Shown here: positions 4,821 to 30,756 of the stretch, piece after piece
How positions within the stretch are numbered: the stretch's first letter is position 1
How the letters are laid out: every line of letters begins with the position of its first letter
Assembly (NCBI GenBank): GCA_008632985.1
Contig: QPGO01000067.1
Coordinates: 124,001-154,948 of the forward strand
DNA length: 30,948 nt
Direction: 5' to 3'
Source: Psammoneis japonica
Lineage: Eukaryota
The notes under the pieces: generated by a model
What the model was told of the DNA's origin: nothing
Databases searched by the model: none
Seen by the model: the letters and a program-made list of their open reading frames with translations, nothing else
Program-made: the position numbers and the translations under genes

Positions 4821-4821
4821 A

Positions 4822-4868
<47 letters not shown>
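4821..4868 (+). repeat. (AAAG)12 microsatellite
   Basis: Perfect tetranucleotide run read directly. Confidence 0.97.
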
Positions 4869-4869
<1 letters not shown>

Positions 4870-7800: not shown

Positions 7801-8929
7801 GCTGGTCAACAGCCCTTGCATCATCTCCTGTTCTGCAGGAGCACAGTTGTTGAAGAACTTCTCATTTGTCAGCATGTGCAGCCCCCCCCCCCTCCTTTTG
7901 AATTGCTGCCCATCATTGCAAACCACAACAGCACTGATGGATCAAATTTTAACCCATCAAAGCTCAAAACATGCCAGCATTGTTGACTGTCCCATCTCAA
8001 TGGCCCTCTTCCATCAAATGGCTACAAAAATTTAGCATCTGCTTTCTCACAAAGTGAAGAGTGAGCTGACAAGTTGATGTTGAATCCAGTGGTGCATGTG
8101 ACATTGACATGACAGTGTCTGACAAATTGTCTCGGTCATGGTTTCATGTCAATGCACAAAAACACTTTTTGAAAAGATGTGATGGCTTGACATTGCTGAT
8201 CAGACCCCACTGGTTGCTGCACACAATGAATTGAAAGAGCCACAGTCAGGGGCAGCTGTTCCCAAGTCCAACATTGGATGTTGAAATCACTTCCATGTCA
8301 ATGACAAGACAATCAATGGTTTTTCCAAGCCTTGGTGCCAAGCATCAAGAATTTGAGATGAACGTTCAAGAACTCACAATGATGGGAGCTTGCACACTTC
8401 AAAGAAAACATTGACATGAACATGAGGCAGAAGGCATCAAATGTTCCCCAGAGTTGGCAACCAGTTGCATGATTGGTGACACCTGTGCAGCTTGGGTGAT
8501 CCTCTCTCTCAGAAGCCAAAGAAGTGAACATGGCACAGCAGTGACATTTAGATTCTTGCTCGAACTGTTGTCAATCGAGAAAATTCATGGTGAATCCTGT
8601 GGTTGACAATGTCACAGTTTGTTGTGCAAAAAGCTTGAGAGACTTTGCAGCACACCTGCATCACTTTTATCCTTGGACAAGGGGGGGGGGCACACCCCTT
8701 GTGCATGACAGCTGCACCAGAATTCCTTTGCATGTTGCTTGGTGTCAAAAAGCATGCACCAAATCTTTGAGGCACCAAAGAAGTCAAAACCCATCCACTC
8801 AAGTTGCAAACGCTCATCGCATTGGTCATGCAACTGTGAAATGGACAGGCATGGACAGCCACACCCCTGCTCATGTGATGAAAATGCAAATGCATTGTGC
8901 ACATGTGAGAGGACAAAAAGGCCAAGGTT

Positions 8930-11137
8930 GTTGGCTGCCACCCAGACGGGAAACATTTGCCGTCTGGGCATCCAGCACAATTTGGGGCACAGTCTTCATG
9001 ACATGCAAATTCAGAGCAACAACAGCAACTGGCAATGCATCCACCAGAGCAGCTTGGGCTGGGACAGTCTGCTGTCATGGCACACTGGACGACATCAGAC
9101 TTCCAGCCAAAAAAGCAGCATTCACCATCAATGCATCTGTCGAAATGGCCATCAGACTTTGGGTCATGCTGCTCACACTGCCTGTCACTTGTGCATGGCA
9201 GCTTGCAAATGTTGTGGGTGCACTTCACGGGAGCTTCTTCACATTCCCCTTGAATTTCTCCAGTGCACTTCCAGTCGCAAGGCACACATGGCATGCACTC
9301 AATGTGCTCTGAACATCCCCCCCGTGCAACATCCTCACCTTGCATGCAGATGTTGCAGAATCGCAAAACGCTTGTTCATCAGACATGCAATGATCATTGT
9401 GATCACATCTTCCTGTGCAGGTCTTGTTGATGCACTGGGGCAATCATGACAGTCAGTGCATCATCTTGATTTGGAAGGTAAAACTTGCTTGTGCTCTGCA
9501 CCTTTGTTGGACAATCATCTTCCTCAAACTTTAGCATGTGAGTCACACTGCATTCAGACTTCCCCTGACCAGGAAAAGTCATGCTGTTTGTCAGATTGAA
9601 CTCTGTGTCGACACATGACTCGTTGTCCAAACCTTTAAATGAGCCCTTACTTGCTCCAATTGTGCGAGACTCTCCCTCAGCATTGACTTGTTTCCGACCA
9701 TCTGGAAACAATGTCGTTGCAACTACAAACCAACCCTGTTCTTGCCATAAGAATTTAGAGACGATTTTGCAGGTTCCAGTGTCATCTGGCCTCAACTTGC
9801 CTTTCAGAGTTTCATTCTTCTTATCTGTGGTCTCTCTCTCACTGACAGGGGTCTGTCCACATTTGTCAAGAGGGGTTTCAGTGTCGAGTCTGTAGAAATG
9901 TGACTCCACTTTGCTGACGTGAGTGGTTTTTGCTGTGTTTGCAGCAGTGCACTCAATTTTCTACAAGGACGAGCTTTTTGCAAGGGCAGAGGCATTGTTC
10001 CGCTGCAGCAATGTTGTCATTGACTTCTTGAATTGCCACAATCGAATGTCAGAGCTCCTCTCTGACAAAAGGATCATTGTCACTGTGGCAGAGTCTAGCC
10101 GAAGCAGGAAGACAAACCATCTGCAACAAAAGAGCTTGAGCAAGAGTTCCAGCAAACCAGCGTTTGCAGCTCCGGTGCTGCACCGGGTCAGCGTTGTCCA
10201 TGAATGTGTCAAGCACACAGTTTTCATGCTTTGCACCATGCTGACACACTCCAGTTTCGCGTCCGCTTGTCTTGTCATTGTTTGCAAACTTGCATCTCTT
10301 GGGACAGGAAGAGCTGTCACCGCACGCACATCCACACAACATCCGGATGAGATCTTGGGGACGATTCTGCAGCTGGTTGCAGACAAAAGGAAAGTCATCA
10401 CTGCAGAGCTCGGCAAGCAACTTTAACTCAGGATCAGGTGCACCACCTTGATCCACAGAATCAAGGAGAAAGCAAATGGAGCATTCACAGGCTGCGCATC
10501 CAGAGCAGACGTGGTCCAACTGAATCCTGATGTCGTCCAACACGTTGTCATTGATCACATCCTCTGTGTTTCAAAACTGACTTGCTGTCTGCGTGGCCAT
10601 CTCATCAAGCTTGGCATTCAGCTTGCTGAACTCCTCCTTGATGAGCACTTGCGTTGGGTCCATAGATTCACGCCCTGGAAATGGAGAAGCCAGGGACAAA
10701 GCAGGTCCGAGAACACTGCTTGCGGCTGCCAAACCCTTCACCAGATTACCCAGATCTGCAAAGACATTGGCAGCATCCAAGATGGCATCAAAAACAGTGC
10801 CGTAACTTGCAAGAAGAACTGAGGCCTGATCGGTCAATTTGTGCTTGGTGAGAGACTTGGAACAGATCATTTCTCCTCCGTCGCACACTGGATCACTGGG
10901 GCTTAAAGGGAATCCTCTTGAGTCCACCACACACAGGGGGACAAGGTCATCACTGTCTGGATCATTGCTTTTCTCGCCTTTCTTCAAGGCGCGGGTTTCC
11001 TCAAAACAATTGCTGGTGAGGAGGGGTCTGGAACAAGCATCCACAACATCCATCCTTGAGCCACAAACATTCCCAGCAAGGACAGCTCATGGGAGGAGGA
11101 GTGCCAGGGCAGGAAGCACCAAGATGGAGATTTTCAT
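8930..11137 (-). pseudogene. Decayed large secreted protein gene: signal peptide, cephalotoxin/rapunzel-like helical segment, Cys-rich C-terminal repeats
   Basis: ATG at 11137 gives MKISILVLPALALLLP*AVLAG (TGA probably from CGA). It continues through ORFs 10571-11053, 10049-10558, 9403-9909, 9225-9443 and 8548-9366 with stops and frameshifts. Contains LGPALSLASPF..DPTQVLIKEEFSKLNAKLD and repeated C-x3-C / C-xDGxC units. The 3' end is approximate. Confidence 0.65.
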
Positions 11138-12605
11138 TTTGTGAGAGCATGCATTGGGTTCAGTTTGTTCATGCCAGAAAGAAGCAATGAAACAAAAGTT
11201 GACAATGCAGGATGGATGATGGAGTTTGGGCTGCCCCGACAACCGGGTTTGCATTGACAAATGCAATTCCAGCCTCTGCCGGCAGTTGAGTTTCGTTCCA
11301 TGCATTGACAGCCCACAAGATCCCTTTGGCTTTGCATCAACGATGATGTTTTTGCTTTCATCCACTTTGCGATGTGCAACAATCTGATGTGCACTTTGAT
11401 CCACATCATTTTCATTCTCACCTTTTTGTGTGTGTGTTCGGACAAGGTTTGGACGCGACTCTCTGAACAAAAATCATGCAAACCACCACATCACATGGAT
11501 TGATTGCAGAATGTTCCAAAGAAAGGCATGAGTGAAAAAGACAGAAAAACATGCCGAAGGCATGGTTTGGCAGAAAATTCCTCGCACATGTGCAAAATGT
11601 CACGTTTGCATCAACAAACTACACACACCATGCACTGCACCTGCTTCCTGCCTCACTTGACGTTAAAGGGCACACGAGCACACTGCTGCTAGAGCCTGGA
11701 GAGTGGACCACTCCTCTCCACTGGCAGCAGAGCTCTGGCACTTGCAGGGCCCTGCATCATCATGCCTGCCGCAGTGCATTCCTTGTGTCTGTGCGTGAGT
11801 CATCGTCAGCGCTTCTGCATGCACTGCATTGCAAGCCCCAAAACCCGCACTGCGGCATTTGCTGGCTCTGTCTAATCCAAAGATTTGAGCATTGTGATGA
11901 CCCCCCAAACTTGCTCCTTTCCCCCTTTCCTCTTTTTGTTGCATGCCCAAGCAGCAACAGATGCCATGCCCATCACCACCTCCCCGCGCACTTTGTTGCA
12001 AGACATCTTGCAGCTTGTTCCACAAGGCGCGGCTTGAGAAGGTTTGTGCACCAATGCCAATGCACTGCCTCTTTCAAAGATGTTGCACAATTCAGTGGAT
12101 GCTGCCATCAATGCTGCAGGTGCAGTTTCAGTCATGCCGCTGTTGTCAACAACAGCTGCTGTGAGCCTTTTGCCGTGGAGCACCAAATTGTGCACCCTCC
12201 AAAAAGGAATGGATGTGCTCGACTCAAACCCTTTGCAAGGGTGGCCAGATTTCTTGGCACAAAACAGGCTGCTGGGAATGTCCGCAATGTCAAACAAGCC
12301 AGGGCAGCCCTTGATTCCTTGACCATGGCAACAAGCCCACATCAGATGGCCTGGTGGACAAAAAACGCAGCTTTTCAGAAGCCTTGGCAGCTGGGTTGCC
12401 CAACTCTCTAGATGAGCCTGGTCAGACAAAGATTTCACATCATGTCTGACCACACTGACTCACCTGGAGAGCTCCTTTGACCAAAAGGACTTTGGCTGAC
12501 ACATGAAGTGTTGTCAACAGTGTGGCAAAGAAGCTGTTCTCAGCACACTCTTCCAACCCCCCAGCATGACAAAACATGCACAGCTTCTTCTTTTTGGGGT
12601 CATCA

Positions 12606-13019
12606 AAAATGACTGTCTTTGAGAGTCAACACCAATCCAGCGTTGAGGTGTGCAATTTTTTCCATTTGCTCCACAAGCCGTGATGGATTAAAGCCCATGT
12701 CTGGCTTGCCATTTTCTCCCTTGAACACCTCAACATCTGGCTTGAATGTTGCAGAAGTTCCTGTTTTCCTCTTTGACTGCAACTTCTGGACAAGTTTGAG
12801 CTTGGAGTGCACCAAGTCATCATTGAGCAATGTCCGTGTCATCGGTGGCTGATGATGGCTTGCCTGAAGGGTGCTTTTCAAGTGTGCCCCCACTCAAATT
12901 TCATGTGACACATTTCTGTCCCCCTTGCAATCCACACAGTCATGTCTGCAAAAGCACTCAAGGCATTCACTGCTGATGCACTCACTCCATGCAAACCACC
13001 AGACACTTTGTGACCATCA
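12606..13019 (-). pseudogene. gyrB: DNA gyrase subunit B ATPase-domain exon fragment (nuclear, organelle-type), degenerate
   Basis: DGHKVSGGLHGVSASAVNALS matches GYKVSGGLHGVGVSVVNALS. KTGTSATFKPD..F and IAHLNAGL match LAYLNxG. Frameshift near 12890. Preceded by a pyrimidine tract and CAG acceptor (13020-13037). Confidence 0.88.
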
Positions 13020-13727
13020 CTGCCAAACAAAGAGAATTGTCTCTGACAAGGAAGGTGGTGCATTTTGTGGTCATTGACCAAACACCTCATTGTTGTCCCA
13101 GAAAACTCTCCAAGGAGGTGTGGGTGGCTTTTGTGGAATGCTTGAAAAATCACCTGGGTGTTGTGGTCTTGCCAAGGTCAAAGAGGAAACACTGTGGCTT
13201 TGAATTTGTGAGGACATCAGAGATGAAAACAAATGAGGGCTGGCAACACTGCATTTCTTCCAATGGCTCCAGCACAATGCCAAAAAATGAAGAACATCCA
13301 ACACAGGTGTTTGTGCAAATGTGGATTTTTTGCAAGAGTCATTGAGTGCATTTTGGCATCAATGTTTGATTTATTTGAAGGTGTGGCAATGTGCCAGCTT
13401 GGCACTGTTGCCAAAGAAGGAGTTGCCACAACTGCTGCAGAAAAAGTGCACATTGTGACATCTTGACCCAGCCTCTGCTCAATGCAAAATGGAAGCTTTT
13501 GATGCATCTGACGGTGCTCTTTGCTCCTGTCATCACAAAGGTGCCATGGCTGTTGTTGTTTGCCCTCCTTCAGCACAGCAAGTCAAGAGCTTCCACACTG
13601 GACATGCATCAGGCAAGTGCAGAAACTGCTCATCTTGTGCAGTGTGCAGTGCCAAATCTCAGACAACAAACTGGCAGGCAAGCACCAGCAACCACATTTC
13701 AACAACTGTCCAAAACATTGGGAGAAG

Positions 13728-13918
13728 TCTCCAGCCAGCTGCTGGCTGAAGAATCTTGAGCAGAATTTGCACTGAAAGAGTCTGTCAATCTGTGTGTTGA
13801 GGTTTTTTTGGTGAATGCTGGATGGACTCAATGTCTTTTGCGTACGTAAAAATTGTGCTGACAAACCCCCCAAATGCGCTGACAAGCAGACTTTTTTTAG
13901 CCAGCAGCTGGCTGGAGA
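13728..13918. repeat. Inverted pair of identical 20-bp arms (13728-13747 and 13899-13918), each containing the palindrome AGCCAGC-W-GCTGGCT
   Basis: tctccagccagctgctggct is the reverse complement of agccagcagctggctggaga. Confidence 0.8.
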
Positions 13919-15840
13919 GACTTCCACAAGACAGGGCACTCAACATGTGCACTGCAAAACATCCCAGCTGCTCCCCTGATCCTCAAGGGGTGGCATGATG
14001 AGGGCACATAAAACTTGAACCCACACATGGTGCAAAAGAAATCAGAGGCCTGCTGGAGCATTTTGCAAGGACTGTCAGCCCATGTTTCTCTGTTGAAAAA
14101 GTTGCAGTGTCATTTGCCTCACATTGTCATTTGGTGGGCAAAAATCACTGTGCTGAAATGCAACAGGAGGCTCACCTTGCCACTGGCTCTGGCATTTTAA
14201 CATTGGCAGATCACACTCAGAATGCTTGGCACCCAAGTTTAATCCATGGATTCAAGGCAACTGCCACAGCAATGGCCAAGCCATGCCAACAAAAGGGCAA
14301 GTGTGAAAAGTGAGTTTGTGGACAACAAAGGTCAGAAAACATGTTGCTGTCATCTTTTGCACCAGCCTCATGTCAAGACTGCACCACCACACATTTTCAT
14401 TTGAAATCATTTTTGCTTGATTAAAGCCAGTGGCCTGCTGTGTCAAAATGGAAAACAGCTCATGATGATCTGGGACAGTGCAAATGGCTGTGCTGCCAAA
14501 TGGCTCTGCAGCTGGTTGACACCACACTTTCCATCTGTGCAGAGTGCCAGGTTTGTTTTGACTGTGCTGTGCACACTCTGACCACAAATGATTTTTTTTT
14601 ATTTTCTTGTGAACTTCATTGTGATGAGCCAAACAAAGCTGAGATGCCTTCATCTCCCATCTTGTGACATTGCTTCACACCATTTTGCATTGACCAAGTG
14701 CAGCAAGACCAGCTGTGTCATGCCTGGGACGGGCCAGCTGTTTGGTGCGACAGTTGAGAAAGCCATTGCAAGTCTGTGATCACTCTGCTAGCACAAGTCA
14801 GCACTGGTGCTGGCAAAGATTTGCACTTGCAGAGGATGAAAAGGCTCTTGAAGTGTGCTGGTTGGCTCTCAAGGAGTGTTGTCTTCATTTGCAGATGAGC
14901 TTGCCAGCTTCATCTCAGCACTGCCAGGTTGAGCAGCAGATCTTTCACCTGATGCTGAGACTTTTTCTGAAAAAACTCTTTTGCAACAGCAAGCTTTTCA
15001 GCTGTGCTCACCACCTGGTTGGCTCCAGATGTTGCAAAAGCAAGCAAACCTGACATGCAGCTCTGCACTTCTGTCAATGCCCGCACTTCACAACAAGCAC
15101 TCTTCAAGGTTCTCTGTTGCAGCTGCCCCTCCCCCCTCCAAGTTGTTCACTTGCTGCATCTGTTGTGATTGACTGACAAGAAGGCCCCTGCTTGGGCCAG
15201 CTTGTCCTTGGCTTCTGCGCAGCAATGCAGAGATGCCACTTCTCCTCATGTGACCCCCCCGTTGATGCTTTGCCTTTTTTGTCAGCCATTCTGGCTGTGT
15301 GGCAGCTGCAGTGCTCTTCTTGCCAGACCTGCTCTTTTTGCCCTGGTGGGAGCAGAAAGTGCCTTGTGAACTCCTGCAGCAGAGTGCTGGTGGCATCTTT
15401 TGCCAACACCCTCTTCTTTCTTCTTCTTCTTGTTTGGGTGACCAAGGTGCTTCTTTTTGCAGAAGAAGTCTCAGTCATGAACAAGAGCTTTGCTTTCTTT
15501 GCATCTTCCTGCTTTTTTTTGGGGGGGGGGTTCGATTTTTGAAAGAGAGCACGCGGGATGTCCCTTGTTGGCAACCTGCTTGTCTTGCACCGTGCAGAGG
15601 CGCCATTGGCCATGGGGAAACATGAAACATCTCGAGGGAAAAAAATGACATCATGATGGAATTTCGGAATCGAAAATGATTTTTCCTGGCCAGCGCGGGA
15701 TGAGATCTTTCAAAAGGGCGGGAAAATAGAACATTGAAAATTTTCAGCTCTGAATTTCTGCATGGCAAGGCGCCGAAAATCTTTTGAAAAAATGACGGCG
15801 ACAGCACCCAGCACAGAAAGTTGATGAAATAGAAAGTGCA

Positions 15841-18800
15841 ATGGCGTCTCGTTCAACGCATCCTTCTCCTCAAGCCATGACAAAGACGGAAGACATCGAT
15901 GACCACTTTAAAGACGCAGTGACAACTCCAAAACAGGAGGAGAACTATTCCTGCATAATTGAACCCGGTGACGTTGTGTGGGCATTGAACGGAAACAGAA
16001 ATGAGGCTCACGAAGCGACCGTATTGAAAGTGGATGTAACCAACAATGTCGCACAAGTCAAGTGGCAGAGATCTCTCTACAAGGACATGGTACCGTTAGA
16101 TCAGATCCGACCCATGTTTGATCTTGCCGAGGTCAGTGGCGATAATACGAAGAATTCTTCAAGACGAACAAGACGCAAGTCTGGTCGAGTACTTGGACTG
16201 AAACAGTTTATTCAACGAAGAATCGCCATGTTGTTTGGTGGCCACGTCTATTTTGGGACAGTCACAGAATGTCGCGAAGGAGAAGATGGGGAAGAAACGT
16301 TGTGGCATGTCAAGTATGACGATGGCGATGCCGAAGATATGAATCGTCAAGAACTGGATGCAGCCTTGGAGTTGTACGAGTTGCGAAGGCACACGGAGTC
16401 GCCCTTACTCAAGGAAGATGGCAGTCAAGCCTTGTTGAAGCAAGACACGTCAGACGACGCTACTACAAGTATTTCGCCCGACAAAACCAAGTCAAAGCGC
16501 ATAAACAACACCGACCGTCCAACACCGAGTACCAACCGATGGTATGCCATGAGGCAAAGACGATTCAAGAAAAGAAGAAAGCTCATGTCGAATCATCAAC
16601 GTCCATCCTCTCAAGGTCTAGAGGATAATCATGACGATTCGTCACGCCGTCCGGGCTTGGTGCCACGGGTGTCTCTGTCTCCTGACCATGTTGATCACGA
16701 AGACGAGGATGCTGACCCCAACGTTGAAGGATCATGCACCACGTTCAAGGATCCGTTCGAATTTTCGGATGATAATGACGATTCTTCACGCCGTCCGGTT
16801 TTGGTGAAACGGGTGTCTCTGTCTCCTGACCATGCTAAACAAGATGACGAGGATGCTGACGACTCCAACGTTGAAGTTGATCCGTTCGAATTTCAGGATG
16901 ATACCGTCAGTGTTTCGGATTGTTCTTGTCATGAAGTTAATAGCGACAATTGTGATTTCTCTGATGAGGTATCTTCCACAAGCCGTGACTGTGAGTCGTC
17001 TTTTGAGTGTGACTCTTGTTGCAGCAGCAGTGACGTGTCATTTGACGGATACGAGGAGGAAGAGGAGGAGGAAGAAGAGGAGGATTCATCATTGTTGCAA
17101 GATGCTTTACTACCTTCTCCAGAGGAACAGCAGAGAATCTTGGACTCGATCGAGTCTCCGAGTGACAAGACTTTGCAATCTCTTCTTTGGTCCCTTGGTT
17201 TTAGCTTTACTCTGTTGCCCCATCAATTTGAGGGGGTGCGAGCGGTTGCGGGTGTTTCCAACACCTTTCCCTTGAACGATGCCGCCGCCGCCACCGCTGA
17301 AGATTACTTTAATTCTTCTACGGACCCCACCACAATTCTCAAAAATTATAACCCCACCGATGAGACTAGTACTCGGGGGATACTACTAGCGGATAGCATG
17401 GGCCTTGGAAAAACCGTTCAAGTGAGTACGACGTTTGCTGTATTCGTGATGTTTTTTGGTCTTCTACTCGTTTCTATTCACACTCATTGTTTGTGTGTCA
17501 AAGTCAATCGGTGGTGCTATACTTCGGAACAAGCTGTGCGAAGCACAAGGAAAGGAGGGTCTACCAACTGTTATTGTGGCTCCCAATGAAAACGTACTGA
17601 CGCAATGGGGGGAAACACTTCTAAATGCTGGTGTGAGTTCCGAGAAAATTTTCTATTTCAGACCCAGAAAACATTGTGGGTTTGACGGGCCGAACTTTAT
17701 CCTCATGACACGGTACAATCTCCAGGGTGAAACCAAGGCTTTGATGGAGAGAATTACCGATAGAGACAAGGGCAACCAAAGCTTGGTGTCGTCGAAGCTT
17801 TTCCCATATGCAACCAAAGATTTACTTTACAAAATGAAGAACCAATACGAGTAGGACCAACATCTTCTGCAAGCGTTGATTTGCTGTACGTTGCGCTAAC
17901 TCTCTCTTTGTTTTATGATATATCAGATCATTTGTCGGGAAAGCTAGGAATCAACTCAAGTTGCGCGATGAAAAAGAAGTGGCCGATGTTGTTGTCTCTC
18001 GGCTTCTCCTTCCGTTTGTAAACAGAGATACACTCCAACAAGTGTTTCGTACTGTTCTTATCGACGAAGCTCACTTTCTCCGGAGCATTTGCTCATATTG
18101 GGGCTTGGGCGCAGCCATGATGGGTCTTCACGGGGAACGTGTTGTACCCCTTACTGGCACGCCATACAACAACGGGCCCAAGGATATGGCGGCTTTAATG
18201 ACGTTTATCGACCCATCCAAGCCTGCTGCCAAAACACTTTGGTGGGCGAATGCTACAAAGTTGGGAACGCCAGCCGACATTGTTCAATCCGTCGGGGAAT
18301 GGAGAACGCATTACATGTTACGACGAGGAAAAGATGTGCTAAAGAAGCAGCTTCCTGATAAGAAGGTTTTCTCCATACCAGTGTCCTCGTATCCAGCTGA
18401 GCTGTATGTGTACAACTATTTCGAACAACAAATGTTAGAAAAGTTGGCTGAGTTTGGTAAACACGATTCATCGGAAATCATCATTCTAAGAAACCTATTC
18501 AAATCAATGCTTGCAACGTTGTCGTGTCAGCGAATGGCCTTAATCCACCCGATGCTTCCTGGTGGACGAGAGATGACAAAAATGTTCTCACCATCTCGCC
18601 GAAAAATGGTCAAAATGGAAGAACGGCCGTGTGTCTGTGTGTGCTGTACTCCAGTGTCCCGTCCTTCTGTACCATTACAGAGAAAAAGTGAGACAGGGGC
18701 ATCAAAACAGAGTCTACCAAACAAGGAATTGCGACTTTGTTACAATATGGACCTAGATGATTCAGATTTGGACGATGGCGGAGAGGAGGAAGTCTACGGT

Positions 18801-20028
18801 GCAACTTGCGAGGAAGACGAATTAGTGCCTCTCTGCGTTGAGGAGAGGTGCGACAGCACCGTTCCTCACTATGCACACAGGAAGTGTCGAGACGAATTGC
18901 GAAGGGATAAACAGCAGTGCCCACGATGTGAGTCGCTTGTGATGCAGATCTGGCATATTGCTTGCCATCATCCACCTTTCCGCTTCTTGCTACAGTGAAC
19001 CTCATATTTCTTGTGCTCGTTGTTCGCCGTACCCCTGCAGGCGTGGATATGAAAAGGAGAGTCCACAACATGACCAACAATAATGAAGACGGTTCTGCTC
19101 CTTTTGTCTCCCAGCGCACTACTTATTGCCAGCATGTCAGTGTATCCCCATCAATGCCCGGTGGCTTCAAAGCATCCGCAAAGATCGAAAGTGTGATCAA
19201 TTGGTTTCGATGCGTTCCGACGGATGAGAAGGTAAATAATACAACAATGTGTGTTGATAGCAGATCTAGGCTCAGCGTCGTCTAACAGCGAGTCTTGCAT
19301 TACGTTTGATACAGGCGATCATTCTGAGCTTTTTCAAAGGTGGGCTAGACTTGATTGAGGGTATTTTGGTAGAGCATCTAGAGGTAGGCTGTGCTAGGTA
19401 AGAATCCGTGTCTCCATTGCAATCATACTTCAACATATGCGACGTACGTGCACTAAAGCCTTCGTCGGAAATGACAATCGCGTCTCTTAGGTTCGATGGT
19501 GATGTGAACGCAAAAGTCAGGGCACAGGAGCTACAAAGGTTCAAGACAAACGCTGATTGTCGCGTACTACTCGCAAGCGTTCAATGTGGGGGTACCGGGT
19601 TGAATATCGTCGAAGCAAATAATGTGTGCTTCGTAGATAGATGGTTTAATCCTTGTGTGCACGAGCAGGCCATGGATCGTTGTCATCGCATCAAACAGCA
19701 AAAGGAAGTAAAGGTTGTATTTCATGACTGTTCAAAGACTGTCGATCAAGTCATGTCGCAGATCAACAAAATCAAGTCCGAAAACGCCTCTATTGTTCTC
19801 GCGGACGGCACTGCACTAGGCCAAACTACGGGAGGAATTAAGTTCAAAGATATGAATGGTATGATTGGGAGTTTGCTCCGAGAGGTTAGAACGCAAAGGA
19901 TGGAATCGCCAAATGATCAGCCGCTGAGCCAAGCGAATCTAGATGACATGGAAACGGAAGAGAAACGAATGGAGAAAGAATTAGCTAAGGCTATCAAAAA
20001 AGCCAGAATGCGCGTCGGATCAAGCTAA
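15841..20028 (+). CDS. SNF2-family ATPase (Rad5/Rad16-like with a Cys/His RING-like insert) with two N-terminal Tudor-like domains; 6 exons, ~1246 aa
   Basis: Exons 15841-17421, 17504-17850, 17927-18927, 19041-19231, 19315-19397 and 19491-20028. All introns are GT-AG (76-113 nt) and the frame is preserved (3741 nt). Motifs LLPHQFEGV, GILLADSMGLGKT, LIDEAH, LTGTPYNN, MLRR, SAKI, FDG, GGTGLN, DRWFNP and QAMDRCHRIKQ. Tudor-like segments PGDVVWA..VKW and YFGTV..WHVKYDDGDAED. Confidence 0.92.
16624..16901 (+). repeat. Intragenic tandem duplication (~145 bp, ~47 aa unit) in SNF2 exon 1
   Basis: DDSSRRPGLVPRVSLSPDH...DPFEFSD is followed by DDSSRRPVLVKRVSLSPDH...DPFEFQD. Confidence 0.9.
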
Positions 20029-22937: not shown

Positions 22938-25253
22938 TCAAAAGAGAGGCGTCGTAGAAGCACACGAGCGCTGATGGGGAAACATCCCATCGTCTAGGTC
23001 GCCACGGCAAAAATCATTTGCAAGAACTGTAGCTTTCTCCGGCACACGACCAAATGGAGGTGCGCCACTTTCCTTGCCACCATAGATCTCAAAGCGCCTC
23101 TTGGCATGTAAATCTGCTTGAACAGAAGCAGATTCTGACAGTCTCGGCCTCATGGACAAATCAGTCATGCTGCTCGATTGATAAAGTGTCTCTTGATTAA
23201 TGAGGCGTTCTTTGGAGGGCAACCGTTGCCTCTCAAGCGCCTCTTCCATGCGCTGCGTGGTCTTGGCAGCATTCCCTTCCACTTGAGCCACTTGACGCTT
23301 CACATCGCAACCAAGACGCAACGACAATGGCATCTCGTGGTTTTTGTTGTGCTGCGAATGCCAAATACGGATACCGTCGAGATTTTGTCGCTGATGAGCA
23401 GAGTGCACGGCTTTTTCTAAAATCGCTTTGAGATAAATCTGAGTCGCTTCGCTCAAGACCGCAAGCGTCTCGTCGTTTGCAGCCTTTTCGTCATTGATCC
23501 ACACAACATTTCTGGGAGGTGGCGGTATTGGCATCCGAGCGTTTGTAGCATCATACTTTGGCTTGCCGGCATACTTTGGCTTGCCGGGAAGCTTGAAACC
23601 GCCCACGACAGGGTTTCCGCTGGCAATCACTTCAAGTCGATATTCCTGTAATTCTCGAAGACGCACCCTAGCCCAAGCCGGCCGTGCCGAAAGGACATTG
23701 CGGTTGTTCCATCCTTCGAGGAAACCTGGAAGAGATACCTGTTGGCCAGATACACGGGCAACAGCCTTTGGAGTGCGGCATAGGGAGGATAGGACGCCGC
23801 CTTCTCCATATAATAGCTTCTCTTGTTGCTCATCCAGATTGACATCTGCCTTATAATCCGTACCAAGGAGGGTTCCACAAGAAATCCAATCATAGCTGAC
23901 GGCGTGATCCAGAGTTTCCATCAAGTTCGAGTATTCACGTGGTGGAGATAATTCCGTACGTGTCGGTGATGCCGTTTCCACAGTAGGTTTTGTGGCCTGC
24001 TGCTGCTGCTGCTGCTGCTGTTGCTGCTGCTGTTGATTGGCTGGAGATTTCGATCTGCTTCTCTTTCCAGCTTTACCTCCCGCAGCGGAATTGGCGGGGG
24101 CCATTTTCCTCTTGTTGCGTTCCTTCTTTTTCGTTGGCTCTTTGGTAGCTACTGCTTTGCCAGGTGTAAGGCGAACGGCTGTTGCCTGAGACACAGATTG
24201 ACCACTTGCTGGTAGAACCTTTTTTCCATAGATCGATGCATGTTGCTTTGCGGCTTGAGCTGGACTGTGATTAGGTGGAGTTGCTCTCGTCTGAGCCGAT
24301 TGCTCCGCAGGAGATTTCGCACCCACCGCCACGTCTTGTCGTTGCTCTTGTGTCGCGGATATTTTCTGCGTCGCTGCATTGTGGCCTGAACTTGATACCC
24401 CATGATCTGATTGATTCGCTGCGGCTTGTCGAGCCATTTTCAACTCATGATGCTTCTTGGCTCTCTCCATGAATCGATTCATGAGCGGATTCCAATAGTC
24501 GTCACCGACAAGACGCCTGAGCTCACCGAACATGACGTGCGTAACACTTTCGTATCCAGCTTGACCCTGAGCCTGCTTCTCGCGAACCTCCTTGAGAATT
24601 ACCTCGGATTGAGTATACTTGTCGGGATGGGTTCGTTTCAATTCTCGTAATAAATACTTGGAAAAGAGGACTTGGAACGCCTTTTTCTGTTTCTCACTTT
24701 TCAATGCTGGTGGACTTGATATAGTGGCAGTCTTGGCGGCAGACGGATTCGGTAAGCTTCCTAGAGACAGAGGTGTACCATTGCTTCCGGTAGTTCCCAC
24801 GCTTAAGCTACCTGGCGTACTACACGATGGATTCTTTGGAGTGCCGGTTTGCTGCATTGGTGATATTTGATATGCGAAACGATTGGCACTATTCGCCTCA
24901 CTGGTGCCACTTGCGGGAGAAGCAAAGGAGAACTGTCGTTGAAGCAACCTTTCGTGATGCACAGCACGATTGTGCGTTGTTGTTGTTGGCGTCTGACGAA
25001 CCAGCGGAGACTGGGTGCTGCCAGTCGTGCGTACAGATAGCGGCGATTGGAGACTGATATTCGATCTGCGCGAGTCTCCTGTGGATGGAACCCCCTCGTC
25101 TGACGTCAAGTGAGCCTTTGATGGAGACATTAGCTGTTTTGCAGCCGTGGTGGAATTTGCCTCTGTGGTTTGATGGCTGTTCTCGTTATCGCTGTCATCA
25201 TCCGTCGAATCGCCCATTAGCATCGCCTCCATATGGTTTGGTGTTGTCGACAT
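22938..25253 (-). CDS. TAF4: TAF4-like TFIID subunit (low-complexity N-terminus, polyQ, C-terminal histone-fold-like region)
   Basis: Long open frame with probable start MSTTPNH at 25253. LAVLSEATQIYLKAILEKAVHSAHQRQNLD resembles the TAF4 histone-fold helix. Helical domain KYLLREL...LRRLVGDDYW. Confidence 0.6.
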   Translation of the reverse strand: MSTTPNHMEAMLMGDSTDDDSDNENSHQTTEANSTTAAKQLMSPSKAHLTSDEGVPSTGDSRRSNISLQSPLSVRTTGSTQSPLVRQTPTTTTHNRAVHHERLLQRQFSFASPASGTSEANSANRFAYQISPMQQTGTPKNPSCSTPGSLSVGTTGSNGTPLSLGSLPNPSAAKTATISSPPALKSEKQKKAFQVLFSKYLLRELKRTHPDKYTQSEVILKEVREKQAQGQAGYESVTHVMFGELRRLVGDDYWNPLMNRFMERAKKHHELKMARQAAANQSDHGVSSSGHNAATQKISATQEQRQDVAVGAKSPAEQSAQTRATPPNHSPAQAAKQHASIYGKKVLPASGQSVSQATAVRLTPGKAVATKEPTKKKERNKRKMAPANSAAGGKAGKRSRSKSPANQQQQQQQQQQQQQATKPTVETASPTRTELSPPREYSNLMETLDHAVSYDWISCGTLLGTDYKADVNLDEQQEKLLYGEGGVLSSLCRTPKAVARVSGQQVSLPGFLEGWNNRNVLSARPAWARVRLRELQEYRLEVIASGNPVVGGFKLPGKPKYAGKPKYDATNARMPIPPPPRNVVWINDEKAANDETLAVLSEATQIYLKAILEKAVHSAHQRQNLDGIRIWHSQHNKNHEMPLSLRLGCDVKRQVAQVEGNAAKTTQRMEEALERQRLPSKERLINQETLYQSSSMTDLSMRPRLSESASVQADLHAKRRFEIYGGKESGAPPFGRVPEKATVLANDFCRGDLDDGMFPHQRSCASTTPLF
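23998..24036 (-). repeat. CAG/CAA trinucleotide repeat encoding polyQ
   Basis: A (ctg)n/(ttg) run on the + strand gives about Q13 in the TAF4-like ORF. Confidence 0.9.
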
Positions 25254-25533
25254 TATTCCGGTGTGGTGGTCGGTCAGAGACTCAGGGCGATAGGAAGGAC
25301 TATCGTTCAGTGTCAGTAGCAATAAGCACAGGCCGAAGACTTTGTTGTTTCTGCTGCTGTTTGTTCGGAAAGTGCAACAGCAGCGGAGTTGTGTCGGGTG
25401 TCGGTGTCGCTCGGCACCAAGATCTCGAAATCGAATCGCGAGCTGTTTTGCAGTGTTTGCATTTTGCATGCATGTCTGAGCGTCTGCCCATCTCGTCTAT
25501 TTTTTTGGCGCGCGGTCGGTCGCTGGCTGCGTT

Positions 25534-25689
25534 GACTCCAACGATTGACGTCACCGTGGACATGATTTTTTGATAAATACAAATTATTTTAAAGTCTGAA
25601 TAAATTTATTTTTCACGTTTTGAAATACTTAGGTGAGTTTTGAGTTTGTTCTGACTTCAACCCGCGTGGCGAAGGTTGTCAGCCTTCAC
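25534..25689. repeat. 156-bp direct repeat, copy A
   Basis: Identical base for base to 30601-30756. AT-rich, with TGACGTCA at 25546-25553. Confidence 0.97.
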
Positions 25690-27900
25690 ACCTTCCGGGC
25701 AGCATTCTGCAGTCCAAGATGCTGCAACCGCGAGGCCATTTGGTGAGCAACTTGCCAGGCGGATTCCTCATTAGCCCCCATTCCGCGCAAGTCATCAACG
25801 AATGTTTTCATGTCGCCAGCAATTTCCTTGCGACGAGAATTCCACTTCATCACGAATGGTTTCTCCGTCTGGAAGTTGGGATCCCCTGGCAAGTTTAGGA
25901 GCAGCTTGTCGCATCCCATGACACTGGAGAGTCAGTTTGGATCGCCTCTGGCAATCTCATCGGCCCAACAAAATGCCCTCACCACCAAGTGAGGGCTGGG
26001 CCGCATCCCCATGAACAAACGGTTCCAACACTCGAACCAGGGCGTGCCCGTCGAGATCGACTCCTGGGACCCGAGACATGGCTTGAGAGGCGTTAAGTCG
26101 ATCCCCGCATGTGGCCGAATGTTGGGATCCATGAAGAAGTTTAAAAACATGTCGCCTGGGTCGAGATCCACTGAAAAGGTGGCACAAGTCATGCACCCCA
26201 GAACCGACGCAGGAGTGGGCAAGAAAAACGAGGGTGCCCAGAGGGCGTCGTTTGACCCCGAGGAGGTTCCGTCACAAACCATTCGCACGTCTTCAACGAT
26301 TTCCACCAAGCGACCATTCTGGGGTTCCACACGGACGGTTTTTGGGACCCAAAAACAATCAGTTAGACTGACCACCCTCCCACGATGGATGCAACCTTGG
26401 TCTCGGACCTTTTGAATCTTGTCCACCATCCTAAGAATCTCGTGCTCGGACCCCCGGATTCTCTGCCGTTGGCGATTGCGAGGGAGAGGGCCCTTGACAA
26501 ATGTCTGGATCCCATCTCGAGCCCCCACCCGCTGTTCCGGAGTGGGCCACCGCCAGAACAAAAGAGACGAACCTCGGTCCCAACTCCACCAGGAGCTGTC
26601 CAACACTTGCACCAACACCTCAGTCCCAAGGTGTGCGTCTAGAAGCAAGGGTGGGAGTGGAGGGTGGCGGCAAACCCCCCCCCTGAAGACGCCCGGTGGC
26701 GTCCCCAAAACGTCGGCGTTGTGTCGCCAGCATGGCGACCCAAGTCGGACCATGCTCCCGGCACAGATGGCCCAGAAAAGACTGAAGGGTCTTTCGCCGC
26801 CACCACCGGTGCGCCAAGTCCCAAAGGGCTGGCAAAGCCTCACCAGACCCCGGGAAAATCAAAGTGATCCTCTCATCCCACAACCGGAAAGGAGGGGCTG
26901 CCGCATCCCCCTTTGCAGCTTTCACCGTTGTGAGGGACACGTCGATCCAAGTGTGGGGCAAATGGCGTCCGAGAGTCGGCAGCCACGTTCCGGCCTGGCG
27001 GACCGGGACCCCGACCTCCGTGTTGTCACACACCATGCCCCCAGGTTGCAACGAATTCCGGGGCGTGTGATCAACAAGCGCCTCCACAAAAAGTGTGAGG
27101 AGATTCAACGGAACAAGAGGAAATCCCCGCTCGAAAGCCTGATGCACCTGAGGCATGCGGAAACGCAGGGGAAAATCCCAGGCCGCCAATGTCTCATCCA
27201 CAGACAGTGTGCGGGTGACCCAACCTGTCGGCGACCGATGCGATGGGTGCACGACTGGTCGGGTCAGAAACTGTGGGTTGAGATGGTCGCCCTCATTGTA
27301 AAATTCCCCACTCGGGTGTTGTGGCGATGGCGACCCGGGTGGCTTGTGGTCGATGATGTGCCCAATGGACCGCCGCAGGCCTCCATCAAAGACCGGAGTG
27401 GGAACCCCCCGCCAGAAGAGTGCAGTCCGAAAGGAAGTGACACCGCCCACCACCGCATGTGCAATGTCCCACCGCTGCAACTGGTTTGAACCTAGAAGAC
27501 TGCGACGCGAAAACGCTCCCACAGGGATCATGATCAAAGATCCCGACCGCATTGCATGAGCTGCGGACTCAAGGAACGAAGGTGGCCCCGACACGAACAC
27601 AACATCAACCCGCCTGGTCAGTTGTTCAACCCTTGCCCATGAGACCCGTGCCAAGGAGGCATTCAATTGGTTCCGAAACAGTTCCACCAACAGAGAACCC
27701 CAGTGGGAGTCGTCGCAGCAGTGACAAATGGCAGGCCATTCCTTTGGTCGCAAGGACAAGAGCCAGATTGGGGGACCGGAGGCGAGAATCAAGCAAGATC
27801 CTTGAAAACAGAAGGCCTTTCTGCCCCGCATGATGTGCCTTGGGTTGTTCGGCCTGTCGAACGAGACCTGGCCCTCCCCCGTGTCCTCCGTTCCCCATGA
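25690..27900 (-). pseudogene. Retroelement pol/reverse transcriptase, frameshifted, with one internal stop and 3' truncation
   Basis: Motifs SSWWSWDRGSSLLFWRWP, FWVPK, DVRMVCDGTSSG.NDALWAPSFFLP, DLDPGDMFLNF, MGMRPSPH, FVDDLR and LQHLGLQNAARK. TGA at 25932-25934, frameshift near 26640-26700. Confidence 0.85.
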
Positions 27901-27903
27901 ATT

Positions 27904-30343
27904 TCACTTCTTGCTCTCCAGAGCCTTAAGCCGACGAGTCAGGTCCTTAATTTCCGTTCGCAATTTGCCCAGCTCGACGTGCGCCGAGTCGCCTCGGGCC
28001 TGGGCTGACTTAGCCTCTGAGCCAGCGTTCTTGGCTTTCTCCGTTGGCGTCAGCACCGAAGATTGCAAATCAGTTGCCACCTCGAATCCCAAGTTTGTGG
28101 CCAGAAACTTGACGCATTCCGATGCCGTGGAAGGGTGGTCGGTAAATCCTAGAGAGGTGCACTCTGCCACAATGTCGTGGGTCCGAAACACCGCCCACAA
28201 AATCTTGCTGCACACTGCATCTGGGTCCGTCCCGGAAATGGAGGTAAAAACCCCGGAGCGCGCCTTGTGGATGTCCTCGAAAATGCGGTGAGTCAATTTA
28301 GTCGTCAAGGACCATGCTTGCTTCTTGGAGAACTTGCTCAGGTCGGTGAGTGATGCACAAGCAGAGTCCATAAACTGAATTAGCGCCCGAAGAAATGCCA
28401 CCGATTTCGACAATGCATCCCGGACTGCCTGACTTTCAAATGTTCCCGGTCTGATGCGTTGGCCAATGTCTTCCACAATGTCGCTCTCCGTTGTGGCGAT
28501 CTTCCCCTCGATGAAGTGCTTTGTTCCGACATTCCCCGAAGACCAGTGTTCGTGGGTCTCGATTTTATCCAAGCAAGAGGGGTGCAAACCCAAGGTCTGA
28601 GACGACTTCACAGATCCTGAGTCGAAGATCCGAGGCATGCGATGCTGGAAACCCGCCAGAGTTCGCGCGTCTTCCTCGGTGGCGATGTTCACACTCATTC
28701 GCTTGGCCCACTGAGATAAAAAGTGATGCAGAGCGGTCCAAGAGCAAGACGACATCAGTTGAGCACCCGCATGCCCTCGAGGGGAAATGCTGTGTCATCC
28801 AGGCTTGACACTCCTCGTAGGATGATGCGCCAACCCCCGAGAACTCAATGGCAGACTTGTCTGACTTTGCACGCAACTCACTCACAGCATGGTCCAGGCA
28901 TGTGACCCTTGCTTCCACGGACCCTTGATCGAATGAAGCGCTGTGAGGTGCAAACCCCGAACCAAACTGGGACTTGATCGACCTGACCTTTGAAGTGAGC
29001 TGTGTGCACACCCGAAGCATGTCATTCTTCAGGTTTTCCAGATCCGTGCGGCCAGCCGTCGATCCCATCCGATCTTGCATGTGTTGGAACTTCTCGTTGA
29101 AAGTTCTCACCAGATTGTTAGATTGGTTTCGCCACCCCGTCTCCACTTGTGTGACACGCTCGACTGGGCCCGGAGATTGGGTTCCGGCTTCCCGGGATGC
29201 AACGTTCGCCAGCACACCCCAAAGAGCAGGGGCAAGAAGAGCCTCATCAAACCCCTGGGTCGGTTCCCCGACAGACGCGTCGAGCTGATCCAGCTTCCGG
29301 CTTAGAATCTCAATCATGGACTCCGCAGCATGGAATCGCCAGCCAGCTTTGTCGCCAAAGTCGGCTGGCACTTCCCCGGCTTGCCTCAACCCATCCTCGT
29401 TCAACTGGACCACACGGGCCAACGCGGACGGACTTTTGTTTGCCGCTGGGAACTGCGCCGGGGCAGAGAGCATTCGTTTCTCGTACGGCGTGAACCCCTC
29501 CAGCACGACATCCTCTTGAAGGGTTGATGGTTCTGGCCACTGCTTCCGAGCCAGTGTCTTGAACTCGGCCGCCCTTTCATGCTCCCTCAGGGCGGGTTCG
29601 ACCTCGTCCTCGGTGGAGAAAGGTTCACCATTGCCCAGCACCAAGAATTTCTGCCGCCAACCGGCTGGTGCACCCGACTCGGCTTCCCACTTGACCAACA
29701 ATCCACCAGACATGTTCCCGCCGCTTGGGATGGGTTGACAAAAACCCGTGTCCGGGGACTTGAGGATTGCTGCCACACCCGACGCCGGAACACTCATCTT
29801 GCTGCCCTTGTGCCTTGCATTACACTCGCTTGCCTTCTTGAGACAGAAGGTGGCTCCTCTGCCCTTGATCCCCAAGCACCGGGGTGCCCCAATGGCCTCC
29901 AGCCAGGTGATTTGACAACGAGGCACATGCGAGGACAAAGAAGACGCACCTTCCCTCTCCGACTCGACCGTGCCTCCGACATCACCTGACAAATCCCGCC
30001 CAAAGAAACCAACCCGAGACGAGCGGGTTTCCCTCTGAACTGGGCGGGATGCGTTTCCTTCCAAAACGTGAGTTCCTGGAGGGTGGGGAATGACTTCTCC
30101 CAACTCCGCCCTGTCAATGTCCGACTGGGGATGACCACAACCCCCCGAAATGTCATCGCTTGTGCCTCGAGGATTTAAGCCCTCGTGACCCCCCCCCTGA
30201 CGCGCAGCCCCAGAGGGGCGAGCCTGAGGAGAGGGAGCCGCCGGAGAGCTCGACGAGAAAGGCGAGACAACATCCGACTCCAGTTGACGAGCTAAATCAA
30301 CGAACGCATCATCCGAGACACCCGAGGCGAAGAAATCCGACAT
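27904..30343 (-). pseudogene. Retroelement ORF1 (gag-like), frameshifted near 28740
   Basis: ORFs 28565-30397 and 27904-28755 join into one decayed frame from the ATG at 30343. Contains a Cys/His knuckle-like CLG..FCLK..C..RH, AWSLTTKL.RIF, ILWAVFRTHD, DHPSTASECVKFL and a C-terminal coiled coil. Confidence 0.7.
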
Positions 30344-30600
30344 GACAAGGGAGACTAAAAAGAAGAGTGCTTTTCCGAGCTTGAGTGATCCAGTCACGAT
30401 GATCAGGGTTCCTGTTCCAACAAAGCTGGAAAAGTGAGAGAAAAGAAAACCGAAGTTTGACCGGTCACAGTCAGAAGACTAGACCGAGTCATCTTGAGTC
30501 GGAAGTACCCTACTTCCGTCGCGGATCCAGCGAGAGGTCATAGTCATCGAGCGAGGTCGGTTTGAGTCAGTCCGTCTCCATCTAAACTTGGGTACGAGGA

Positions 30601-30756
30601 GACTCCAACGATTGACGTCACCGTGGACATGATTTTTTGATAAATACAAATTATTTTAAAGTCTGAATAAATTTATTTTTCACGTTTTGAAATACTTAGG
30701 TGAGTTTTGAGTTTGTTCTGACTTCAACCCGCGTGGCGAAGGTTGTCAGCCTTCAC
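30601..30756. repeat. 156-bp direct repeat, copy B
   Basis: Identical to 25534-25689. Confidence 0.97.

Follow-up and report, generated by a model that had tools for sequence, protein, structure and literature searches.

In Neurospora and other fungi, repeat-induced point mutation (RIP) is a premeiotic process dependent on RID/DIM-2, by which C is changed to T, mainly at CpA, so that TpA is generated and the GC content falls. CpG decay is the deamination of 5-methylcytosine in silenced repeats, while the deaminases ADAR and APOBEC hypermutate mobile elements on one RNA or cDNA strand and thus in one direction, with ADAR favouring U before the edited A. As for TpA, it has been reported that integrated giant-virus and virophage DNA is hypermutated in the chlorarachniophyte Bigelowiella natans, where the changes were measured as new mutations in mutation-accumulation lines (Mettrop et al., 10.64898/2026.01.13.699255). 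According to the abstract, Results and Discussion of this preprint, the changes consist nearly exclusively of A>G and T>C, they occur only at TpA and on both strands, an ADAT2-like adenine deaminase is proposed as the agent, and reverse transcriptase (RT) and transposase domains are enriched in the TpA-poor coding sequences. In the present analysis, a 30,948-nt stretch of the genome of the diatom Psammoneis japonica (hereafter the window, to which all coordinates refer) was studied, and in it a 4.8-kb TA-poor body on the minus strand (25690 to about 30479). With a probability of roughly 80%, this body is a dead retrotransposon copy whose lineage passed through a mutational process that erases TpA, while its CpG stayed near the norm of its family.

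The locus is like that of B. natans in several respects: A:T to G:C changes at TpA on both strands, the striking of foreign or silent DNA with genes spared, and low TpA together with raised CpA+TpG. It is unlike it in its host, a diatom (stramenopile) and not a chlorarachniophyte, and in its target, a tyrosine-recombinase retrotransposon. The depletion is also deeper, with an observed/expected ratio (o/e) of 0.13 here and 0.00–0.15 in the 1-kb windows of a neighbouring island, compared with a Rho of 0.45 in the nucleocytoplasmic large DNA virus (NCLDV) region of B. natans. The diatom case is known from sequence traces alone, whereas that of B. natans is known from mutation-accumulation lines; on the other hand, the preference for 5′-TAY-3′ (Y, pyrimidine) and the comparison with CpG decay given below are absent from the abstract, Results and Discussion of the preprint. 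Beyond that preprint, no TpA-specific hypermutation was found in a full-text literature search, in which other papers were judged by their titles and the beginnings of their abstracts. With RIP, the locus shares a transition hypermutation limited to repeated or foreign DNA, the killing of transposons and a dinucleotide skew, but the direction is opposite, since TpA is destroyed and GC raised here, and the enrichment in C>T changes and TpA by which RIP is recognised is not seen.

TpA, CpG and tyrosine codons in the element body

The o/e was taken as the count of a dinucleotide divided by its expectation from base composition, and the pol regions of 80 related loci, taken from metagenomes, served as the family baseline. 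In the 4654 nt from 25690 to 30343 there are 27 TA against 210.7 expected (o/e 0.13, i.e., an 8-fold depletion), so that the figure of about 28 estimated by eye in the first-pass annotation was nearly exact, and 308 CG against 380.8 expected (o/e 0.81). The TA o/e of the relatives has a median of 0.60 and ranges from 0.40 to 0.80, with 0 of the 80 below 0.40; even against the most TA-poor of them (0.40), a count of 27 is improbable (Poisson P = 3e-13). For CG, the median of the relatives is likewise 0.81, with 40 of the 80 below the value of the element, and it is 0.89 among the 28 relatives whose GC is at least 0.5. That is to say, TA stands 4- to 5-fold under the family baseline while CpG stands at the family norm. 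Both parts of the body show this: the pol part (25690–27903) has 9 TA (o/e 0.09) with a CG o/e of 0.77, and the ORF1 part (27904–30343; ORF, open reading frame) has 18 TA (o/e 0.16) with a CG o/e of 0.85. The TA-poor tract reaches to about 30479, as 1 TA is present against 9.0 expected in 30344–30479, and directly beyond it, in 30480–30600, there are 6 against 6.5 expected. The GC content is 57% in the element and 46–51% in the neighbouring genes. The CA+TG o/e is 1.23 in the element against a median of 1.09 in the relatives (n = 80), a surplus of about 80 sites (~0.14 × 572) that is similar in size to the roughly 99 TA sites missing (~0.6 × 210.7 − 27). Together with the range of the relatives, this shows that the TA poverty of the element is mutational and not a family trait.

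The loss is also visible in the proteins. Five stop-to-stop frames on the minus strand contain 2, 0, 1, 0 and 0 Tyr, that is, 3 in about 1,700 residues with overlaps counted twice, and the early estimate of about three Tyr in the main ORFs was therefore right. Elsewhere, Tyr makes up a mean of 2.74% in 150 homologues and a median of 2.5% in the relatives, the lowest of which has 1.13% (n = 80). Comparison was made with a pol profile of 1245 positions, built from 38 full-length homologues, and with an ORF1 profile from 36 relatives. In the 11 columns where Tyr is the majority residue, the window has no Tyr at all; there are 5 His, 3 Cys, 2 Phe and 1 Ala in its place, so that Tyr has been replaced by His or Cys in 8 of the 11, and it is lost even in a column that is Tyr in 38/38 homologues. 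Other conserved columns were kept in 224 of 338 cases, against 0 of 11 for Tyr (Fisher P = 9e-6). The motifs at which former Tyr had been suspected by eye agree for the most part, the homologues having Tyr at the site of RMVCDG in 35/38, RPHAG in 26/38, PSPH in 26/38, QHLG in 25/38 and GCI in 38/38; only SECVKF does not, since its column is Tyr in 12/36 and most commonly Leu (14/36).

As regards the strand, 213 mismatched conserved columns were considered. Among them, a sense T>C change is inferred at a former TpA in 12 cases and elsewhere in 4 (P = 9e-5), and an A>G change at a former TpA in 11 cases and elsewhere in 10 (P = 0.009); in other words, former TpA sites account for 12/16 of the inferred T>C and 11/21 of the inferred A>G changes. 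The inferred residue changes include Tyr>His five times and Tyr>Cys four times. To judge from these columns, the TpA changes strike both strands about equally (12:11), and this split speaks against the editing of single-stranded RNA or cDNA, as had already been argued from the presence of both kinds of replacement. The locus is thus like the targets of ADAR and APOBEC in the deaminase-type hypermutation of a mobile element, and unlike them in that both directions are equal. By eye, the Cys and His replacements fall into 4 runs among 12 sites, but such strand patches are unproven, and CA versus TG per 300 nt shows no clear pattern.

The surviving TAs have a marked context. With R for purine, 18 of the 27 in the element are YTAR, 8 mixed and 1 RTAY, compared with 64, 171 and 111, respectively, among the 346 TAs of the neighbouring genes (YTAR excess in the element, P = 2e-7); the surviving TAs of the island are likewise YTAR-biased (26/46). 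Given a family-typical ancestor, the survival of a TA would be about 0.59 in YTAR, 0.13 in mixed and 0.03 in RTAY contexts. Because YTAR survives and RTAY does not, the process prefers 5′-TAY-3′. As for its chemistry, the sequence alone is compatible with an A-directed as well as a T-directed reaction.

The pace of TA loss relative to CpG decay was judged from sister copies, i.e., contigs of sequencing run X1 from the same sample, which are not readable as copy number or expression. Among 813 variant places, the best-supported 40 were classified: the window has CA/TG where the sisters have CG in 15 and where they have TA in 6, it has CG where they have CA in 1, and the rest are 13 other transitions and 5 transversions. 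Within these 40, the private losses per site come to about 6/33 TAs and about 15/323 CpGs, and 5 of the 6 private TA losses lie in the slow YTAR contexts. Moreover, 17 inferred residue changes fit CpG transitions. By composition, the CpG loss is at most about a tenth, the CG o/e of 0.81 being equal to the family median beside those 15 private CpG losses. CpG decay has thus begun but is slight, and TA loss is separable from it and far more advanced. The products of CpG decay, TpG and CpA, are the same, and it acts on the same DNA, to its full extent in the island; however, it turns G:C into A:T, and the CG o/e of the element has hardly moved while TA has fallen to 0.13.

The same order can be followed along the whole stretch. 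When it is divided into 61 windows of 500 nt, 26 are normal in both TA and CG, 22 are low in both, 12 are low in TA with normal CG, and only 1, a borderline case, shows the reverse; this nested pattern fits a TA loss that saturates first. In the first-pass annotation, TA mutagenesis had been proposed to be separate from CpG decay and probably earlier, in an element that had kept its CpG. The separation is borne out by the CG o/e at the family median and by the 12 windows against 1. The retention of CpG is true of the composition and not of the individual sites, given the 15 losses among the best-supported 40 sister differences. From the word "earlier", what stands is the rate: the results support a TA loss that is faster per site than CpG decay, with both processes having acted on the window copy, and a distinct first stage is unsupported.

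Structure of the insert and of its retrotransposon family

The insert lies between two copies of a direct repeat, R (as shown in Table 1), which start 5067 nt apart and are identical over 156 nt in a repeat search of the window. Each copy contains 8 TA against 15.3 expected, and all 16 TA of the two copies are unchanged. Zero differences in 156 nt put the upper 95% bound of their divergence at 1.9%, but this identity dates the insertion or duplication and not the TA loss.

Table 1. Features of the insert and of the surrounding DNA in the Psammoneis japonica window
Feature	Positions	Strand	Remarks
Older gene-free repeat island	3001–15700		TA o/e 0.00–0.15, CG o/e 0.02–0.49 (1-kb windows)
Gene resembling a chromatin remodeller	15796–20028	+	at least 3 exon-like frames; PTM/DIR17-type Tudor, SNF2-related, Helicase_C
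TAF4-like frame	22938–25496	−	852 codons; weak TAF4-family match (E = 0.009, under the Pfam cutoff); poly-Gln run
Direct repeat R, copy 1	25534–25689		156 nt, perfect; TA-normal host-like intergenic DNA upstream of the TAF4-like gene
pol ORF remnant	25690–27903	−	predicted methyltransferase-like N-terminal domain, then reverse transcriptase; profile match in two frames
ORF1, gag-like position	27904–30343	−	about 810 codons; ends at TGA 27904–27906; profile match
5′ leader	30344–30479	−	within the TA-poor tract
TA-normal 121-nt segment	30480–30600		between the TA-poor tract and R; part of a very abundant repeat
Direct repeat R, copy 2	30601–30756		156 nt, 100% identical to copy 1

The pol remnant matches positions 20–410 and 421–722 of the 1245 profile positions in two different frames, with a frameshift in a C-run at about 26648–26710, where four sister contigs are one letter shorter (at 26675), and with an in-frame TGA at 25932–25934. 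ORF1 matches its profile at positions 75–461 and 468–736, also in two frames; the frameshift is near 28722–28732, and at least one sister copy has 23 extra letters behind 28732. The window copy ends just after the RT, without the RNase H-like part, the C-terminal domain, the recombinase ORF and the 3′ terminal repeats of its relatives. A contig of run X1 stops exactly at 25689, and the unique flank agrees with that run with 0 differences in 690 nt. The sister copies continue beyond 25690, and the sequence of the loose end at this point continues pol; 25690 is therefore a truncation point, and R is not a terminal repeat of the family. In summary, the window copy is dead and 3′-truncated, as seen from two frameshifts, an in-frame TGA and the truncation.

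This state does not agree with the earlier view that the element must be young because its frames are still mostly open. Over the six frames there are 147 TGA, 27 TAA and 17 TAG stop codons, and non-coding frames are long as well, for example a 357-aa frame on the plus strand; what keeps the frames open is the near absence of TAA and TAG, in a copy which is itself broken by frameshifts, TGA and truncation.

On the other side of the body, the summed contig depth is 4042 in the bin 30373–30571, against 69 in the unique flank and 235–950 in the element body. Four contigs carry the 30480–30600 segment up to 30593 and then diverge, and this segment could represent a terminal repeat of the element itself or else DNA of unrelated origin. 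The region 30340–30620 was also considered as a miniature inverted-repeat transposable element (MITE), and this was rejected since its terminal inverted repeat is not convincing. Some joints skip about 100–134 nt at 30439–30574, but their sides are 20–29 letters long with 80% likeness, and they were not relied on. An empty insertion site is bridged by no contig in the listed part of the data (10 of 726 pieces, 15 of 23 joints). Retroelements of the recombinase type would not be expected to leave a truncated copy inside a perfect, TA-normal 156-nt repeat; such a bracketing by R would result from a circle that integrated by homologous recombination, or from template switching.

No further copies of the element lie within the 30,948 nt, but it is multi-copy in the same sample, with 698 contig pieces at 80–100% likeness. 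For the RT frame, 1542 homologues were found at E ≤ 0.001, the best of them 53% identical and many of them 1,200–1,400 aa long, and those with names come from the diatoms Cylindrotheca and Attheya. These homologues and the pol profile match confirm that it is a retroelement, as had been recognised in the first-pass annotation. The frame 26620–27903 gave no homologues of similar length at E ≤ 0.001 and was placed later by means of the profile of the longer homologues. Pfam is of little use for this family: the five element frames gave only a sub-threshold DUF7100 match, 8 full-length homologues only a sub-threshold RVT_1 in one of them, and ORF1, pol and ORF3 of the relatives nothing meaningful. 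RVT_1 itself is weak (P0020 at E = 7e-4, and a precomputed match in P0157).

The relatives share a plan of three ORFs, namely ORF1 of about 750 aa (36 loci), pol of about 1,240–1,370 aa and an overlapping ORF3 of about 520–550 aa (49 loci). RNase H motifs can be seen by eye in the relatives, in the part that is absent from the window copy. A PDB sequence search with ORF3 gave 0 matches, while a structural model from 38 sequences (pLDDT 83) has XerH, lambda integrase and Cre as its best folds (probability 1.00, E = 6e-5), with Arg, Lys, Arg, Trp and Tyr columns that vary little or not at all. From this model, the ORF3 of the relatives is predicted to be a tyrosine recombinase, in place of a DDE integrase; the window copy ends before it. 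Split direct repeats in the order A1-ORFs-B1-A2-B2 define Ngaro elements, according to the portion of the literature source cited here (PMC8547959). This exact layout was found in locus L009 alone among 7 relatives examined; in L037 two repeat families are arranged as B-A-B-ORFs-A, L045 carries a 174-nt repeat at each end of its contig, and L023, L052, L067 and L008 have no repeat pair spanning the element. The family may lack one fixed Ngaro layout, or some of the relatives' contigs may be circular or tandem assemblies. On the whole, the element is a multi-copy tyrosine-recombinase (Ngaro/DIRS-like) retrotransposon of a diatom with its RT within the pol ORF.

The N-terminal part of pol, of about 430 aa, was modelled from relatives (window 26710–27807, minus strand; L009:2539-3828 and 36 others) with a pLDDT of 81. 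Among its 56 best fold matches (E ≤ 0.001), M.MpeI, M.HhaI, M.HaeIII, Dnmt2 and DNMT3 rank first (Foldseek probability 1.00), so that the model points to a cytosine-5 DNA-methyltransferase-like fold. However, no column with at least 50% Cys, as would be expected of a catalytic Cys, is present among the 37 sequences, and Pfam DNA_methylase has no match in the domain. Going by the sections of the paper cited here, the nearest described elements are SymbioDIRS-Dnmt3 of Symbiodinium, DIRS retrotransposons that carry a DNA methyltransferase (DNMT) (de Mendoza et al. 2018, PMC5890265). The family of the window is like SymbioDIRS-Dnmt3 and Ngaro in having ORF1, pol and a separate recombinase ORF, a predicted methyltransferase-like fold in the ORF of the RT, and an RT too divergent for Pfam. 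It is unlike SymbioDIRS-Dnmt3 in that its methyltransferase-like domain is without the conserved catalytic Cys and without the Pfam match, and its hosts are diatoms, with further members in marine metagenomes, while the words "diatom" and "stramenopile" have 0 occurrences in the same text of PMC5890265. The window copy, unlike Ngaro/DIRS elements, is without recombinase and terminal repeats.

Place of the TpA loss and rival explanations

Several points weigh against a dead copy whose lineage was stripped of TpA by mutation in the manner described. Ancestral states were inferred from distant relatives and from composition, the closest protein relative being 50–53% identical, and the closest protein relatives are too distant for a DNA-level table of substitutions by context. 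A purine precedes the Tyr>His codons in 3/5, against a baseline of 52%, which is not significant. Only 6 of the best-supported 40 differences are TA loss, so most of it may be inherited, and the TA-normal state of the R copies and the 121-nt segment fits mutation before arrival at least equally. Finally, the records name no sequencing platform for the assembly or for run X1, so that a base-calling artefact at a modified TpA retains some probability. The third and fourth of these lead to a variant in which the TA loss is real but was made elsewhere, a stripped dead copy or fragment having been moved here by a DNA-level event such as a circle recombining through R, or template switching; this is given close to an even chance, and it would make the youth of the insertion uninformative on the speed of TA loss. 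Normal retrotransposition is unlikely for a copy truncated in pol and deprived of RNase H, the C-terminal domain, the recombinase ORF and the 3′ terminal repeats, and the perfect 156-nt flanking repeat is a product not expected of recombinase elements. Under the depletion of the body, the normal TA of the R copies and of the adjoining 121 nt would be improbable (P = 5e-6 and 2e-4), which leaves two readings, either a process sharply bounded at this place or a fragment stripped before its arrival. The few private TA losses, nearly all in slow YTAR contexts, point the same way, as do about 190 letters of loose ends and insertions of the sister copies, in which 1 TA is found by eye. However, shared and private losses are not countable from the best-supported 40 of 813 variant rows, and the six private losses indicate that the process was still active after the split from the sister copies.

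Editing before integration, on RNA or single-stranded cDNA in the manner of ADAR or APOBEC, would account for a depletion that ends close to the borders of the element, with the tract confined and the host flanks untouched, and a cDNA intermediate is used by DIRS-type elements, as the cited part of one paper has it (PMC5890265). Such editing predicts one direction, whereas 12 T>C stand against 11 A>G and 5 Tyr>His against 4 Tyr>Cys; the island at 3–15.7 kb is depleted across 12.7 kb regardless of element borders, the truncated copy is improbable as a direct product of retrotransposition, and the B. natans mutations appear in culture, in DNA that is already integrated, according to the above-mentioned sections of the preprint (10.64898/2026.01.13.699255). 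This explanation is therefore considered unlikely. It is very improbable that the signal is an artefact in which silent chromatin carries a base modification at TpA that long-read base calling turned into TG or CA: the context rule could also fit a modification motif, and the unrecorded platform leaves room for it, but the unique flank matches run X1 without a difference, the indels and truncation are those expected of a truly dead element, and a like signature was obtained by Illumina NovaSeq resequencing of B. natans lines, again as given in those sections (10.64898/2026.01.13.699255). Long frames and a CG at the family norm might also suggest a native, selected trait of an active lineage, such as codon usage or the avoidance of a TA nuclease or mutator. 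This is extremely improbable, in view of the fact that 0/80 relatives are below a TA o/e of 0.40 and the lowest relative Tyr content is 1.13%, that 0/11 conserved Tyr are kept, including the 38/38 column, that the copy is truncated and broken by two frameshifts and an in-frame TGA, and that long frames occur in non-coding sequence too, TAA and TAG being rare.

Surrounding DNA, proposed process and its meaning

The genes at 16–25.5 kb have a TA o/e of 0.4–0.67 and a CG o/e of 0.78–1.21 (1-kb windows). TA is low in 34 of the 61 windows of 500 nt, all of them in the island, the element or the island edges (2501, 15501), and the gene windows are TA-normal. In the island, the CA+TG o/e is near 1.9 (about 1.5–2.1 in 500-nt windows), and none of its six ORFs of at least 200 aa has a Pfam family. 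In parts of the island, at about 10001–12000 and 15501–15700, CG is intermediate (0.33–0.9 in 500-nt windows) with TA already low. The gene that looks like a chromatin remodeller abuts the edge of this TA/CG-erased island. The TAF4-like frame lies immediately downstream of the insert and is read in the same direction, with R within its upstream region. The nearest named relatives of an epimerase family protein encoded in the window are from the diatoms Attheya, Mayamaea, Seminavis and Amphora (62–67% identity), in agreement with a diatom host.

Returning to the reading of the body as a dead copy that passed through TpA-erasing mutation, the process would consist in the conversion of TpA to TpG or CpA, i.e., A:T to G:C transitions, on both DNA strands, and it would be fastest where a pyrimidine follows the A (5′-TAY-3′, which for the T is equal to 5′-RTA-3′). 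About three quarters of the family-typical TAs are missing, most of the TAA and TAG stops have been lost, and each conserved Tyr codon now reads differently, in most cases as His or Cys. The target of methyl-cytosine deamination, CpG, stands at the family norm and is only starting to decay, the two processes differing in chemistry and in per-site rate, and the island at 3–15.7 kb represents the end state, with TA and CG both gone. The agent is taken to be an enzyme that targets silent or repetitive DNA; an adenine deaminase of the sort suggested for B. natans would be one candidate.

A wider proposal is put forward tentatively, and it is held to be somewhat more doubtful than not. Diatoms may have an enzyme-driven, repeat-directed mutator that changes 5′-TAY-3′ to TGY on either strand and could disable transposons before one ordinary substitution arises in the 156-nt flanking duplicates. 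It would be independent of cytosine methylation, and it would amount to a second RIP-like defence with the opposite chemistry, shared or convergent with that of the chlorarachniophyte.

If the dead-copy reading is right, the erasure of TpA would neither depend on the decay of methyl-cytosine nor be its by-product, and its per-site rate would be several times that of CpG decay. The rule that YTAR survives and RTAY is lost may serve as a fingerprint to be matched against candidate deaminases. In such genomes, long open frames are no sign of a young or active element, since two of the three stops have been mutated away. The locus thereby adds a diatom and a retrotransposon to a process that has been described once, in an unrelated alga (the 2026 preprint), and it contributes a family-based baseline, the equal use of both strands, and a warning against dating elements by their open frames.

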